Of a DNA stretch of 64,000 nucleotides, positions 12,059 to 16,808 are shown piece by piece. The stretch is from positions 12,615-76,614 of the forward strand of contig CAMTOO010000001.1 in NCBI GenBank assembly GCA_947074185.1. The letters are read 5' to 3'. Origin of the DNA: an uncultured Negativicutes bacterium (lineage in GTDB: Bacteria; Bacillota; Negativicutes; Acidaminococcales; Acidaminococcaceae). How positions within the stretch are numbered: position 1 is the stretch's first letter; every line of letters begins with the position of its first letter. Under the pieces are notes generated by a model. The model was given only the letters and a program-made list of their open reading frames with translations, did no database searches and had not been told where the DNA came from. A program made the translations under genes and the position numbers.

Positions 12059-12637
12059 TTATTTTTTATCAACTGCAGCAATAATTGCTTCTGCTACTTC
12101 TTTAATACTTAATCTGCGGTTCATACTATATTGTTGCATTCTGCGATATGCTTCTTGCTCGTTCATTCCATGAGCAGTCATCAAAACGCCTTTTGCTCTA
12201 TCTAAAAGTTTTCTAGTTTCTAAACTTTCTTTTAAATTGCCTATTTCATCTTCTAGCATTTTAGCTTCGCCAAATTTTGACATTGCAATTTCAATTGCTG
12301 GGAATATTTGTTCTTCACGAACTGGTTTTACAATATAACCAAATACGCCTGATTCTGCTGCTTTTGCTACAATATCTTCTTGGCTATAAGCTGTCAAAAG
12401 TACTACTGGAGCAATTTGCTCTTCGTTAATAAGTTTAGCTGCTGCAAGACCATCCATAACAGGCATCTTTACGTCCATAAGGATTAAGTCTGGTTTTAAT
12501 TCTCTAGCTTTTAAGAGTGCTACTTCTCCATTTTCAGCTTCACCTACAACATTATGTCCTGCATCTGTAAGTAGTTCCTTTAAATCAAGACGGATAATTG
12601 CTTCGTCATCTACTATTAAAATATTTAGTGCTTTCAT
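12059..12637 (-). CDS. Response regulator with REC + ANTAR RNA-binding domain (PdtaR-like)
   Basis: The REC domain shows DDE..D..MP..DG. The C-terminal part LETRKLLDRAKGVLM..EQEAYRRMQQYSMNRRLSIKEVAEAI is an ANTAR domain. Confidence 0.88.
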   Translation of the reverse strand: MKALNILIVDDEAIIRLDLKELLTDAGHNVVGEAENGEVALLKARELKPDLILMDVKMPVMDGLAAAKLINEEQIAPVVLLTAYSQEDIVAKAAESGVFGYIVKPVREEQIFPAIEIAMSKFGEAKMLEDEIGNLKESLETRKLLDRAKGVLMTAHGMNEQEAYRRMQQYSMNRRLSIKEVAEAIIAAVDKK

Positions 12638-12639
12638 TA

Positions 12640-14022
12640 TTATTCCTCCACTCCTTTAGGTATAGTTACAATCGCTCTTGTTCCACCTTTCGGATTAGGG
12701 AGCAATTCGAAAACGCCTTTCAAATCAGATTCTACCATAGTTTGAATAATTTTTAGACCCAAACTTTTTGTTTTACTAAGATCAAAACCTTTTGGAAGCC
12801 CTGTGCCATCATCTGTTATTTCTAACAAATAACAATCTTCTTTTATTGAGAAATTAACTGATATTTCTCCAACTTCTCTATCATCAAAAGCATGATCTAA
12901 AGAATTTTGCAAAAGTTCATTTAGTACTAAAGCAATACTTGTTGCTTTTTCAGAAGATAAGGCTACGTTATCTGCATTAAAACTAGTTTTTAATTTTAAA
13001 TTAGGAGTAACCATACTGCCCATAATCGCTTCGTAAATACCACTTGCAACTACTGCAATATCTATTGTACCACTATCTTCTTGAGATAAAAACTCATGCA
13101 CTACTGCAATACTATTTACTCTATTAATACAATCTCGAAGCACTACTTGAGTTTCTTCTGATACTGCTCTTCGTTCTTGTAAACGGAGTAAGCTAGCAAT
13201 AGTCTGCAAATTATTCTTTACTCTATGATGAATTTCTTTAATAACAACAGACTTAATTAAAAGTTCTTCATCTTTCTTTTTAAGTTCTGTTATATCTTCA
13301 AAGATTACTATTACTGCTGGCGTTTTCTTAAACGGTATAACTGGTATAACCCGAACATTTAAAAGTATACCTTGAATATTTAAGTCTTTTTCTTCTGCTA
13401 CACCAGACTGCAAAACGCTATTTACAACAGGCCAGTTAATATCTAAACTATTTGTTCTTTTACCTACCAAGGTACTTATCCCTAGTATTTGGAATATATG
13501 CTGAGCCGTTTTATTTGCCTCTGTAATGGTTTTTTCATCATTTACAACCATCAAGCCATCTATAGGTGCTAAGCGACGATAGCAGTTATTTCCTACAACC
13601 TCACGCTTATAGTTACGCAACAAATTCATAGCTGTATCAAAAAACTTCATTTTTTCTGATTTAGTAGTAAATACAGCTACTGCAAAACACTTATCTTTCA
13701 TGTCTCTTAGTGGATAAATTTTTGTATTTGCAAACTCACCCAAAGCGTATTCTCTTTTTCCTTCTACAACAATATTACGTTGCAAAGCTCTTGCAATAAG
13801 AGGCTCTTCAGATAAATCAATTGTTCGAAGCGCTTTTTGTGAATGGTGATGAACAAAATTTGTTAGTGGTTCTGCCTCGCAAAATACTTCAGCAGCATTA
13901 ACACCCTCAGCAGGGCGCAAATATATAGTTACATGTGCATTTGCAATATCTGCAACTAAAGGCATTCCTGCGCTTATAGAAAGCAAAATATTCTTTTGTT
14001 CTGCTGAAAAATTAGTAAGCAT
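12640..14022 (-). CDS. Sensor histidine kinase, HisKA_2 type (PdtaS-like)
   Basis: H-box EIHHRVKNNLQTIASLL and the HATPase motifs NELLQNSLDHAF and GLGLKIIQ. It lies 2 bp upstream of the ANTAR regulator gene. Confidence 0.85.
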   Translation of the reverse strand: MLTNFSAEQKNILLSISAGMPLVADIANAHVTIYLRPAEGVNAAEVFCEAEPLTNFVHHHSQKALRTIDLSEEPLIARALQRNIVVEGKREYALGEFANTKIYPLRDMKDKCFAVAVFTTKSEKMKFFDTAMNLLRNYKREVVGNNCYRRLAPIDGLMVVNDEKTITEANKTAQHIFQILGISTLVGKRTNSLDINWPVVNSVLQSGVAEEKDLNIQGILLNVRVIPVIPFKKTPAVIVIFEDITELKKKDEELLIKSVVIKEIHHRVKNNLQTIASLLRLQERRAVSEETQVVLRDCINRVNSIAVVHEFLSQEDSGTIDIAVVASGIYEAIMGSMVTPNLKLKTSFNADNVALSSEKATSIALVLNELLQNSLDHAFDDREVGEISVNFSIKEDCYLLEITDDGTGLPKGFDLSKTKSLGLKIIQTMVESDLKGVFELLPNPKGGTRAIVTIPKGVEE

Positions 14023-14071
14023 TATATCCCCTCAAATCTTTAAAGTCAGTATTTATCAATGAAAGACACTG

Positions 14072-14184
14072 TTATCAACATAGTTTTTTATTTATCCACG
14101 AAGTTATCCACTTTATACACAAGTTTATCCACAGAAAAATTGGTTATTTTAATGTTTTTTCTAATTTTTTCCACGTTATCCACA
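14072..14184 (+). promoter_or_regulatory. DnaA-box cluster (non-oriC)
   Basis: All boxes are in the same orientation. TTATCCACA is perfect at 14125..14133 and 14176..14184. There are 8/9 matches at 14072 (TTATCAACA), 14092 (TTATCCACG), 14104 (TTATCCACT) and 14113 (TTATACACA), and a 7/9 match at 14167. Confidence 0.8.
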
Positions 14185-14198
14185 ATTTTCACTAGTAT

Positions 14199-15212
14199 TT
14201 ATTCTAATTTCAAACCAGGATTTGCGTTCAATTCCAGTGGACTTTTTACCCCTGCTTGGTGCAAATAATATCCTCTGCAAGCTATCATTACTGCGTTGTC
14301 TGTACATAAGATAGGCGTTGGATGAACTAGCCTAGCCCCTACTTTTTCTGCGGCTTTTGCAAGTTCGTTTTGCAAGGTATTATTTGCTGATACACCACCA
14401 GCTAAAACTACTTCTTTAAGTCCTGTAGCTTTTAAGGCCAGCACTGTTTTCTGCACTAGTACATCTACTATAGCTTTTTGGAAAGATGCTGCTACATCTG
14501 CCTTATTAACATCTCTCTTGCCTTGTTCTTCTTTGTGCAAATAGTTAATAACAGCAGATTTCATGCCACTAAAACTAAATTGAAATTTTTCATCTAACAT
14601 TGCACGCGGAAAATCTATAGCTTCTGGATTTCCTGCTTTAGCTAATTTTTCAATTTCTGGTCCACCTGGATATGGAAGTCCCATTACCCGGGCAATTTTA
14701 TCAAAAGCTTCGCCTGCTGCATCATCTCTTGTTTGTCCTAATAATTCAAAACTATTATAACTTAGTACTTTCATAAGTGCAGTATGCCCACCTGAAACTA
14801 CTAATGCTAAAAATGGCGGTTCTAAAGTTTGATCATTTAAAAAATTAGCAAATACATGACCTTCTAAATGATTGACACCTATTAGCGGTATTTTATTTGC
14901 CCAAGCTAATGCTTTAGCTGCAGATAGTCCTACTAATAACGCTCCTACTAGCCCTGGCCCATAAGTTACTGCTATTGCATCTATTTGCGCTAAAGTAACA
15001 TTTGCCTTATTTAGAGCTTCGTCTATAACAGGCATAATATTTTCTATATGTTTACGAGAAGCGATTTCTGGTACCACTCCTCCAAATTTTTGATGGGTAT
15101 CTATTTGAGAAGAAATAACATTAGATAAAACTTCGCGACCGTTACGTACTACTGCTGCCGCTGTTTCATCGCAACTGCTTTCTATCCCCAAGATATAAAT
15201 ATCTTTTCCCAT
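14199..15212 (-). CDS. tsaD: tRNA N6-adenosine threonylcarbamoyltransferase TsaD
   Basis: 337 aa with [15 protein letters not shown] and GGVSAN. Confidence 0.96.
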
Positions 15213-15232: not shown

Positions 15233-15691
15233 CTAATTTTTATAAATCCACATAATAACTGCATTTTCGTGGTTATCTTCATAATAATTTGGTCTTACAC
15301 CTTCTGAAACAAAACCATTTGCTTGATATATCTTTTGCGCCGAAATATTACTTTCTCGTACTTCTAAAGTCATAGCTGTAGCACCTTGTTCCCAAGCTGA
15401 TTCTAACATCGCTTTAGTAAGTACTTTCCCTAGTCCTCTATTGCGTTCTGTTTTTGCAATAGCAACTCTAGTAACTTGCGCTTCCCCTACAACAAGCCAA
15501 AACCCTGCATAGCCTAACATTATTCCATTTTCTTCTAGAACTAAATATGTGCTTAAGGAATTATTTATTTCATCTACCCACATATTATCGCTCCAAGGAT
15601 CATGAAAAGCGTCTTCGTCTATGAGTCGTGCAGCTTTAATATCTGCTGCGGTCATTGTTCTGATTGTAGTGCTTGTTGTTTCTTTTCCCAT
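15233..15691 (-). CDS. rimI: Ribosomal-protein-alanine N-acetyltransferase
   Basis: GNAT fold (RNRGLGKVL). It lies in the tsaB-rimI-tsaD context. The N-terminal extension parallels B. subtilis RimI, and a GAGG lies 10 nt upstream of the ATG. Confidence 0.85.
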
Positions 15692-16353
15692 AATTCTTCT
15701 GCCTCAGATTTTCTTATGTAATATGGTGTTATACCAAAAACTTCTTTCCCAGAAACAGTACTTCCTGCATTTGCTGCTTGTGCTACAGAAGTTGCTTTAG
15801 GCATTCTTACATCTTCACTAGCAAGGCTAATTTCTGCCTTTAAGGAATCTACTAGTTTATCGCATTCGCCAAGTAAGATAGTTTTCATGCCATAACTTGC
15901 AATCTTAGTAAAAAGTTCTTCTTTAGAAACTACTTCTACTGCTTGCTTTTCTATTAATTTTCCTTGCTGCCAAGTGTAAAGTGCTAAATAATAATTTCCT
16001 TTTTGCGCATCTAAAACTGGAGCTAGTAAAATATTTTCTTCTTGAATATTATAGGCTAATGCTTTTAAAGTATTAACTCCGCATAATTCACACTTCCAGC
16101 TATATGCCATAGCTTCGGCTGTTGCAAGTCCTATTCGAAGTCCTGTAAAAGAACCAGGGCCTATACTTACAGCTATTTTACTGATTTGGTCAAAGTCTGT
16201 TTTGCTTTCAGTAAACAATTGATCTATTTGCACCATTAGTGCTTCTGAATGTGTTAGTCCTATATTAGCTTCATAAGATGCAATTACTTCGTCACCTTTA
16301 ACTAAAGCTACTGTACAAACTTTGGTTGATGTATCTATCGCTAAAGTTACCAT
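15652..16353 (-). CDS. tsaB: tRNA threonylcarbamoyladenosine biosynthesis protein TsaB
   Basis: LAIDTST.. N-terminus and GPGSFTGLRIG. Confidence 0.92.
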   Translation of the reverse strand: MVTLAIDTSTKVCTVALVKGDEVIASYEANIGLTHSEALMVQIDQLFTESKTDFDQISKIAVSIGPGSFTGLRIGLATAEAMAYSWKCELCGVNTLKALAYNIQEENILLAPVLDAQKGNYYLALYTWQQGKLIEKQAVEVVSKEELFTKIASYGMKTILLGECDKLVDSLKAEISLASEDVRMPKATSVAQAANAGSTVSGKEVFGITPYYIRKSEAEELWEKKQQALQSEQ

Positions 16354-16808
16354 TTAGCTTCCACCTGCCTTACTAGTTCTTCGTTGCGTTCTCCTACAGC
16401 AGAAATTTTTATAAGTCTGCCTTCAGGAATAATACTTAAAGTTATTTGCAAATGTTCAGGAGGAAGTTCTGAAGTGAATAGCTCTGCCCACTCTATAAGA
16501 GTTATTCCATCTCCACCTGCATATTCATAAAATCCAATATCTTCTAATTCACTTGGGCTATTTAAGCGATAAAGGTCAAAATGCCTAACTTCATTATTAG
16601 TACCATTGTAAATATTCATAATAGAAAAAGTAGGGCTGCTAACCTCTGCATCAGCTACTCCTTGCGCAATGGCAATACCGCGACTTAGAGCAGTCTTACC
16701 TGCACCTAAATCACCACTTAAGCAAACTACGTCATTTGATTGTAGCAATTCCCCTAGAACATTACCAAGTCGCTCGGTTTCAGCGACGGTTTTACATACT
16801 ATTTCCAT
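16347..16808 (-). CDS. tsaE: tRNA t6A ATPase TsaE
   Basis: GDLGAGKT Walker A, SPTF, and DLYRL. Confidence 0.92.
   Translation of the reverse strand: MEIVCKTVAETERLGNVLGELLQSNDVVCLSGDLGAGKTALSRGIAIAQGVADAEVSSPTFSIMNIYNGTNNEVRHFDLYRLNSPSELEDIGFYEYAGGDGITLIEWAELFTSELPPEHLQITLSIIPEGRLIKISAVGERNEELVRQVEAKW

Follow-up and report, generated by a model that had tools for sequence, protein, structure and literature searches.

What is a tight cluster of DnaA boxes doing directly downstream of tsaD, in a stretch of chromosome that contains no replication origin? The question is raised by the 64-kb window considered here (the whole stretch of DNA that was analysed), which belongs to a 1.57-Mb assembly of 82 contigs whose GC content is 34.8% and whose completeness is estimated at 100%. 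The first-pass annotation had reported two perfect boxes, four 8/9 matches and one 7/9 match, all on one strand, and a box scan confirmed this description: window positions 14072-14184 carry seven same-strand boxes on the plus strand, the two perfect ones being copies of TTATCCACA. In order of coordinate, the boxes are:

14072-14080, plus strand: box TTATCAACA, 8/9; an outlier that overlaps a weak -35-like TTGATA and ends 49 nt before the kinase ATG
14092-14100, plus strand: box TTATCCACG, 8/9
14104-14112, plus strand: box TTATCCACT, 8/9
14113-14121, plus strand: box TTATACACA, 8/9
14125-14133, plus strand: box TTATCCACA, 9/9
14167-14175, plus strand: box TTTTCCACG, 7/9, read by eye from the sequence
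14176-14184, plus strand: box TTATCCACA, 9/9; nearest tsaD, 14 nt past its stop codon

All seven are housed in the 176-bp spacer (26% GC) between tsaD and a histidine kinase gene. The neighbouring genes are without exception on the minus strand, and groES and groEL come after the REC-ANTAR regulator. In the direction of transcription, the genes around the array are:

16347-16808, minus strand: tsaE (Pfam TsaE, E 1.1e-37), which heads the tsaE-tsaB-rimI-tsaD block
15652-16353, minus strand: tsaB (Pfam TsaD-family N-terminal half, E 1.4e-26)
15233-15691, minus strand: rimI-type GNAT acetyltransferase (Pfam Acetyltransf_1, E 3.2e-15)
14199-15212, minus strand: tsaD, also called gcp (Pfam TsaD, E 3.5e-102), with its TAA stop codon at 14199-14201
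12640-14022, minus strand: PdtaS-like histidine kinase (GAF_PdtaS, HisKA_2 and HATPase_c domains), with a ribosome-binding site GAGGGG at 14029-14034
12059-12637, minus strand: PdtaR-like REC-ANTAR response regulator (Pfam Response_reg, E 4.9e-28; ANTAR, E 5.4e-22)

The assembly encodes LpxC (C42:11312-12112), which was absent from the B. subtilis and Lactococcus controls; the presence of LpxC implies that lipid A is made and that the organism is a diderm. This fits the Negativicutes in spite of two genes elsewhere in the window, one for a protein with a GerM domain and the other for an N-acetylmuramoyl-L-alanine amidase with an Amidase_3 domain. The families and genome sizes of the sampled class, and a tsaD-kinase-ANTAR gene order shared with Pelosinus fermentans and Selenomonas, point the same way, so that the organism is most likely a member of the Negativicutes.

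How unusual is such a cluster? Boxes were counted when they had at most one mismatch to the consensus TTATNCACA, a definition that leaves the 7/9 box outside the count. By this measure the 64-kb window shows no overall excess, with 24 boxes against 20.6 expected, and six of them fall within 113 bp. The genome as a whole has 547 such boxes in its 1.57 Mb, and a single 113-bp window reaches six, which is the maximum both genome-wide and among AT-rich windows (GC <= 0.28). The Poisson probability of six boxes in 113 bp is 3e-12 per window, so that 5e-6 such windows would be expected per genome. The comparison with other AT-rich regions had been fixed beforehand, and it leaves the array as the densest of all, with no AT-rich window elsewhere holding six boxes.

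The boxes are not only dense but ordered, and they fall into two modules separated by a spacer:

14167-14184, plus strand: tsaD-proximal module, an abutting pair of TTTTCCACG (7/9) and TTATCCACA (9/9) at 9-bp spacing
14134-14166, no strand: inter-module spacer, 33 nt and A/T-rich; the boxes on either side of it start 42 nt apart
14092-14133, plus strand: distal module, TTATCCACG, TTATCCACT, TTATACACA and TTATCCACA at 12-9-12 bp spacing
14104-14133, plus strand: triad of 30 bp, box-3nt-box-0nt-box, read as TGTGGATAA on the tsaD sense strand

In the sense direction of tsaD, the array of this genome runs TGTGGATAA-CGTGGAAAA, spacer, and then TGTGGATAA-act-TGTGTATAA-AGTGGATAA-ctt-CGTGGATAA. The same syntax is common among relatives, in which an abutting pair with a 9-bp period lies 10-40 nt past tsaD and is followed by a spacer of variable sequence, by the 12+9 triad and often by a weaker box 3 nt further on.

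These statements about relatives come from a class-wide survey of the DNA 3' of tsaD from 110 genomes, in which an array was defined as at least three boxes (at most one mismatch, gaps of at most 70 bp) within 700 nt. Such arrays are present in 48 of the 110 genomes, drawn from at least 13 families. Almost all of their boxes point the same way (229 of 239, or 96%), reading TGTGGATAA on the tsaD sense strand, and their starts are bimodal, with one group +0-40 nt and the other +70-120 nt from the tsaD stop codon. Spacings from box to box in the 48 arrays peak sharply at two values, 9 bp (51 cases) and 12 bp (41 cases), and the 12+9 triad occurs in 43 of them with a median start at +78 nt. Between the modules, the distance from box start to box start clusters at 42-44 and 53-55 nt; in the relatives compared, the spacer keeps its length class while its sequence is not conserved. 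On this comparison the 30-bp triad is the core conserved module of the array. Whole families that retain both tsaD and the kinase have no array (0 of 19 members in family f15, 0 of 5 in f24), and the combination of wide presence with absence from entire families argues that the array is old and has been lost repeatedly. Its loss from families that keep the two flanking genes also means that it is dispensable.

Does the arrangement extend beyond the class? The first-pass annotation had called for a comparison of tsaD downstream regions across the Firmicutes, and a second survey covered 80 named tsaD loci, each of about 7 kb, with a cluster again taken as at least three boxes. Apart from one weak example, the clusters found there all sit 0-550 nt downstream of tsaD. 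The cluster-bearing loci belong to Alkaliphilus peptidifermentans, a Carboxydocellales MAG, six Clostridia or 'Clostridiaceae' MAGs, two unclassified Bacillota MAGs and Bacillus sp. FJAT-49711, and none was found among the Lachnospiraceae-type loci or the 14 loci from other phyla. In the Bacillus locus (L087) the array is followed by an ABC-F (ydiF-type) gene convergent with tsaD, as in B. subtilis, and it has the same box polarity and an abutting pair. The array is thus kept after tsaD, with like polarity (on the leading strand) and like layout, in three Firmicute classes, and position, polarity and layout together strongly support the view that these are the same locus. A literature search returned no paper describing a tsaD cluster outside the Bacillaceae and none describing the 12+9 layout, and searches with the abutting-box sequence strings gave no matches either.

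Within this genome, intergenic box clusters number four: at tsaD, between dnaA and dnaN, between noc and soj, and upstream of a UxaE-like gene. The triad is found exactly four times genome-wide, always at an intergenic box cluster:

C41:10324-10353: noc-soj spacer, 0 mismatches, three perfect boxes
C36:8781-8810: upstream of the UxaE-like gene, 1 mismatch
Window 14104-14133: tsaD array, 2 mismatches
C41:1419-1448: dnaA-dnaN spacer, 4 mismatches, with TTATCAACA-type boxes

Combinations of gaps other than those of the triad are essentially absent from the genome. Since one copy of the triad lies in the dnaA-dnaN origin spacer, the reading of these repeats as DnaA sites is strengthened. The cluster at C36:8781-8946 is a strong second non-origin cluster in its own right, with seven boxes, four of them perfect, in the spacer between a gene for an EamA-type transporter and the UxaE-like (tagaturonate epimerase family) gene. 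We also looked for a cluster beside other t6A genes, as occurs at B. subtilis ywlC, and rejected this idea because none of the four intergenic clusters is at tsaC.

The first-pass annotation had placed the tsaD array outside any origin context, and this stands. The sole dnaA gene is on another contig, C41, in a typical origin neighbourhood together with dnaN, rnpA, yidC, jag, trmE, mnmG, rsmG, noc, soj and spo0J, and a GC-skew check shows that skew is negative along the entire 64-kb window without a switch. From the uniform sign of the skew we conclude that the minus strand is the leading strand, that tsaD is co-directional with replication and that neither an origin nor a terminus lies within the 64 kb. 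The array has no adjacent dnaA or dnaN, no trio run, no conserved AT-rich element and no skew switch. In the five complete genomes of array-bearing relatives, the tsaD locus is 43, 84, 90, 100 and 141 degrees from dnaA, and these distances led us to reject the idea that the array is an origin-proximal, oriC-domain feature in this class. The tsaD gene is co-directional with replication in all five of these genomes, so that the polarity of the array relative to transcription is inseparable from its polarity relative to the replication fork (n=5).

The likely unwinding side of oriC is the dnaN-dnaA spacer, C41:1296-1540, which has an AT-rich stretch, a TAG-trio-like run (TAGTAGTCTTAGTAGTAAG) and weak TTATCAACA-type boxes; consensus boxes are fewer there than in the tsaD array. 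The dnaA gene itself deserves comment. The recognition residues in domain IV of the encoded DnaA are canonical: the domain retains KKR...GGRDHTTVIHA, the residues that contact the bases according to PMC2533591. Between the AAA+ domain and domain IV, the reading frame contains one in-frame TGA (C41:1799-1801; ...LDKLKHHI*DYFKIKYADLVGKKR...), after which the frame is intact to the normal C-terminus. Stop-codon use across the genome gives no sign of TGA recoding. An assembly error would be the simplest reading of this TGA, and a nonsense polymorphism or read-through could also account for it. If the TGA were real and not read through, the product would be a DnaA without its DNA-binding domain, and that would count against a DnaA reading of the array.

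Is the array part of a transcription unit, and is it tied to the kinase gene that follows? Synteny of tsaD, kinase and ANTAR genes is common to much of the class (among others, at the relatives' loci L012, L013, L016, L017, L025, L028 and L030) and is also seen in Pelosinus fermentans and Selenomonas. Where the array is absent, the kinase gene often begins only 3-60 nt after tsaD, which implies that it is co-transcribed with the t6A operon there. In 47 of 48 loci no hairpin of the intrinsic-terminator type separates the array from tsaD, nor does one separate it from the kinase in any of the 39 loci concerned; this, together with the kinase abutting tsaD where there is no array, argues that the array lies inside a transcription unit. 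The spacer contains no strong or conserved promoter: its promoter-like matches score 9-10 of 12, are not conserved in relatives, and the best of them overlaps the kinase ATG. A known or structured RNA in the spacer was considered and rejected, since Rfam gave no match at E <= 1 and the predicted fold of the spacer RNA is no better than that of shuffled sequences (z = 0.12).

The association with the kinase gene proves to be loose. The kinase is the next gene in 39 of the 48 array-bearing class members and is missing from that place in the other 9, and it follows tsaD without any array in 39 further members. The position of class arrays is fixed relative to the tsaD stop codon, and the distance to the kinase start varies from 104 to 386 nt. 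Because array and kinase occur independently among class members, we rejected a kinase/ANTAR link as the primary explanation. The suggestion in the first-pass annotation that DnaA might control the ANTAR two-component genes accordingly shrinks to a possibility, given this independence (9 against 39) and the lack of a conserved promoter.

Several rival explanations need to be weighed against this evidence. The simplest is that box-like words have clustered by chance in an AT-rich spacer, as the 26% GC of the spacer and the unremarkable box count of the whole window (24 against 20.6) might suggest. With about 5e-6 such clusters expected per genome, with AT-rich windows elsewhere never reaching six boxes, and with place, polarity and layout shared with 47 other class genomes, we regard chance as already refuted and its remaining probability as negligible. 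It is also extremely improbable that the array is a relic or auxiliary origin, that is, an oriC-like unwinding site. The array does share the 12+9 triad with the dnaA-dnaN spacer, and in this genome its inter-module spacer is A/T-rich; among relatives, however, that spacer is not A/T-rich, no TAG-trio run accompanies the array as one does the origin boxes, and skew does not switch anywhere in the 64 kb, with dnaA and dnaN on a different contig. Moreover, the complete relatives place the locus 43-141 degrees from dnaA, and the B. subtilis counterpart is classed outside oriC.

Two further alternatives take transcription of the region as their starting point. Perhaps the array is mainly a DnaA-dependent operator, acting at the level of a promoter or of read-through, that ties the PdtaS/PdtaR-like two-component genes to replication status. 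The boxes are indeed 49-162 nt upstream of the kinase ATG, the last of them overlaps the -35-like TTGATA, weak promoter-like hexamers occur inside the spacer, and no terminator separates tsaD from the kinase, which is the next gene at 39 of 48 arrays; in B. subtilis, DnaA represses or activates genes beside other clusters (PMC2533591). It is difficult to reconcile this proposal with the arrays that lack the kinase, in 9 class members as well as in Alkaliphilus, the Clostridia MAGs and Bacillus, whose arrays are followed by a convergent or unrelated gene, or with the 39 class members that have the kinase, often 3-60 nt from tsaD, and no array. The hexamers are weak (9/12) and not conserved among relatives, and the array keeps its distance from the tsaD stop codon rather than from the kinase start (104-386 nt away), so that we consider an operator of this kind quite unlikely. 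The other alternative is that the UGUGGAUAA repeats act as RNA, bound by a protein in the tsaD 3' UTR or intercistronic RNA, in which case the polarity of the boxes would be due to RNA and not to DnaA. The uniform orientation of 96% of the boxes with respect to tsaD, and the seeming transcription of the array, given the lack of a terminator before it, would be in keeping with such a role. Yet the repeats are exact matches to the 9-bp DNA consensus of DnaA, their triad recurs in the origin spacer and in spacers that are untranscribed or hold promoters, where it is oriented differently with respect to the neighbouring genes, and the B. subtilis counterpart is bound as double-stranded DNA both in vitro and in vivo (PMC2533591, PMC4447404). 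With neither an Rfam match nor a stable fold (z = 0.12) in addition, action as RNA seems very unlikely.

The reading that we prefer draws on B. subtilis. Ishikawa (2007) found that DnaA binds stably to eight intergenic regions of that organism, gcp-ydiF included (PMC2533591), and the first-pass annotation was right about a DnaA-box cluster between gcp (tsaD) and ydiF (PMC2533591, PMC4447404). The cluster downstream of gcp is conserved in the Bacillaceae and is occupied by DnaA in vivo, and its location between convergent 3' ends is atypical for transcriptional control (PMC2533591). In vitro, gcp-ydiF is among the strongest DnaA-binding regions, with 10 sites and a Kd of 0.15 uM with ATP (Smith and Grossman 2015, PMC4447404), and at low protein concentration it shows a 16-fold preference for ATP-DnaA over ADP-DnaA (PMC4447404). 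The array described here has the features of that type, namely dense intergenic boxes (4-8 with at most one mismatch, several of them perfect; six are present here) directly 3' of gcp/tsaD and outside oriC. We therefore propose that this diderm Firmicute, most likely one of the Negativicutes, very probably carries the orthologue of B. subtilis DBC[gcp-ydiF], and that its densely packed boxes, all pointing one way, would be expected to support cooperative assembly of ATP-DnaA.

What could such an element do? On boxes so close together and all in one orientation, ATP-DnaA would be expected to bind cooperatively as a short oligomer; by analogy with the B. subtilis data, the array may take up about seven protomers, with the ATP form preferred. 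Two broad roles can be envisaged from this point. In the trans-acting role, to which we give not far short of an even chance, the array would be a DnaA sink or regulator that sequesters or otherwise acts on ATP-DnaA and, together with other clusters, lowers the free ATP-DnaA and so delays initiation. This is the published working model, albeit a weak one for the tsaD cluster in particular. Deletion of all six non-origin clusters in B. subtilis advances initiation (Okumura 2012, PMC3245932), and a 2026 review still gives the six-cluster result collectively only. The first-pass annotation had supposed that the tsaD cluster titrates DnaA in the manner of datA, and here the B. subtilis evidence is unfavourable: deletion of DBC[gcp-ydiF] alone left the relative ori/ter ratio at 0.99 of wild type, and putting this cluster back near oriC did not rescue the six-fold deletion (3.13 versus 3.17) (PMC3245932). 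A neutral single deletion without rescue on re-insertion weakens the case for a simple titration role.

The cis-acting role, which we hold to be possible though rather improbable, starts from RNA polymerase that leaves tsaD and would run into bound DnaA. The bound DnaA might then gate or throttle read-through into the kinase and ANTAR genes, or transcription might strip DnaA off the array. There is documented precedent for roadblocking by DnaA in E. coli (PMC10950094, PMC11317965), where read-through from the glyV-X-Y operon modulates datA (PMC10950094). The trans and cis roles are not exclusive, and some other or unknown role is a further, more doubtful prospect. A more ambitious proposal, which we put forward as speculative and on balance unlikely, is that the array is not an interchangeable DnaA sink but has a dedicated part in the DnaA cycle of Firmicutes, with constraints on its geometry, that it dates to the split of Bacilli, Clostridia and Negativicutes, and that it belongs to the transcribed end of the t6A (tsaEBD) operon. 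Such an element might capture or convert ATP-DnaA in the manner of datA or DARS, or it might serve as a sensor coupled to transcription, with read-through from an operon tied to translation capacity evicting DnaA, or bound DnaA gating that read-through. If this were so, growth-rate-dependent transcription would be linked to replication initiation.

Whichever role applies, the locus presents a puzzle: the gcp/tsaD cluster is among the strongest DnaA sites of B. subtilis, and yet its deletion alone has no measurable effect. A diderm class keeps its position, its polarity and its 9/12-bp layout, far from the origin and in the terminator-less spacer of an operon, and these conserved features argue against an oriC-domain organiser as well as against a generic sink free to lie at any site. 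They direct attention instead to the geometry of the boxes and to their interplay with tsaD transcription. Clusters of this kind were already known from the published work on Bacillus; what the sequence comparison appears to add is that the layout is conserved and the polarity fixed, that the array is embedded after tsaD without terminators, and that it is not close to the origin.

How does the array compare with systems that have been studied directly? Like DBC[gcp-ydiF], it is intergenic, directly 3' of gcp/tsaD and outside oriC, with 7-10 packed boxes of which several are perfect. It differs in being followed by a PdtaS-like kinase gene that reads in the same direction as tsaD, rather than by the convergent ydiF of B. 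subtilis, in beginning 14 nt past the stop codon and lacking a terminator both before and after it, and in its diderm host. Relatives in the class have the locus 43-141 degrees from dnaA, whereas the B. subtilis clusters are described as mostly oriC-proximal, and the DnaA binding measured for DBC[gcp-ydiF] is predicted for the array here.

The resemblance to E. coli datA is one of arrangement. Both are non-origin box clusters just 3' of a translation-related unit, in the case of datA the glyV-X-Y tRNA operon, and ATP-DnaA oligomers are predicted on the array as well. There is no sequence homology between datA and the tsaD array, and the sequence of the inter-module spacer is not conserved. The function of datA requires an IHF site and boxes 2, 3 and 7 and consists in stimulating ATP hydrolysis on DnaA. 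At datA, read-through transcription and DnaA/IHF binding are mutually antagonistic (PMC10950094), a situation that the terminator-less layout described here parallels.

With the DnaA-regulated promoters of B. subtilis (dnaA, sda, ywlC and yydA), where DnaA is a repressor, an activator or a roadblock, the array shares the presence of a box cluster in the spacer upstream of a gene; it differs from them in having no convincing or conserved promoter and in tracking the stop codon of the upstream gene. Finally, the array resembles the oriC arrays of Firmicutes in that its 30-bp triad is also present in the dnaA-dnaN spacer of the same genome. The origin copy has weaker TTATCAACA-type boxes accompanied by a TAG-trio-like run and an AT-rich stretch, whereas the tsaD array has neither of these companions, nor a skew switch, and carries the stronger boxes.
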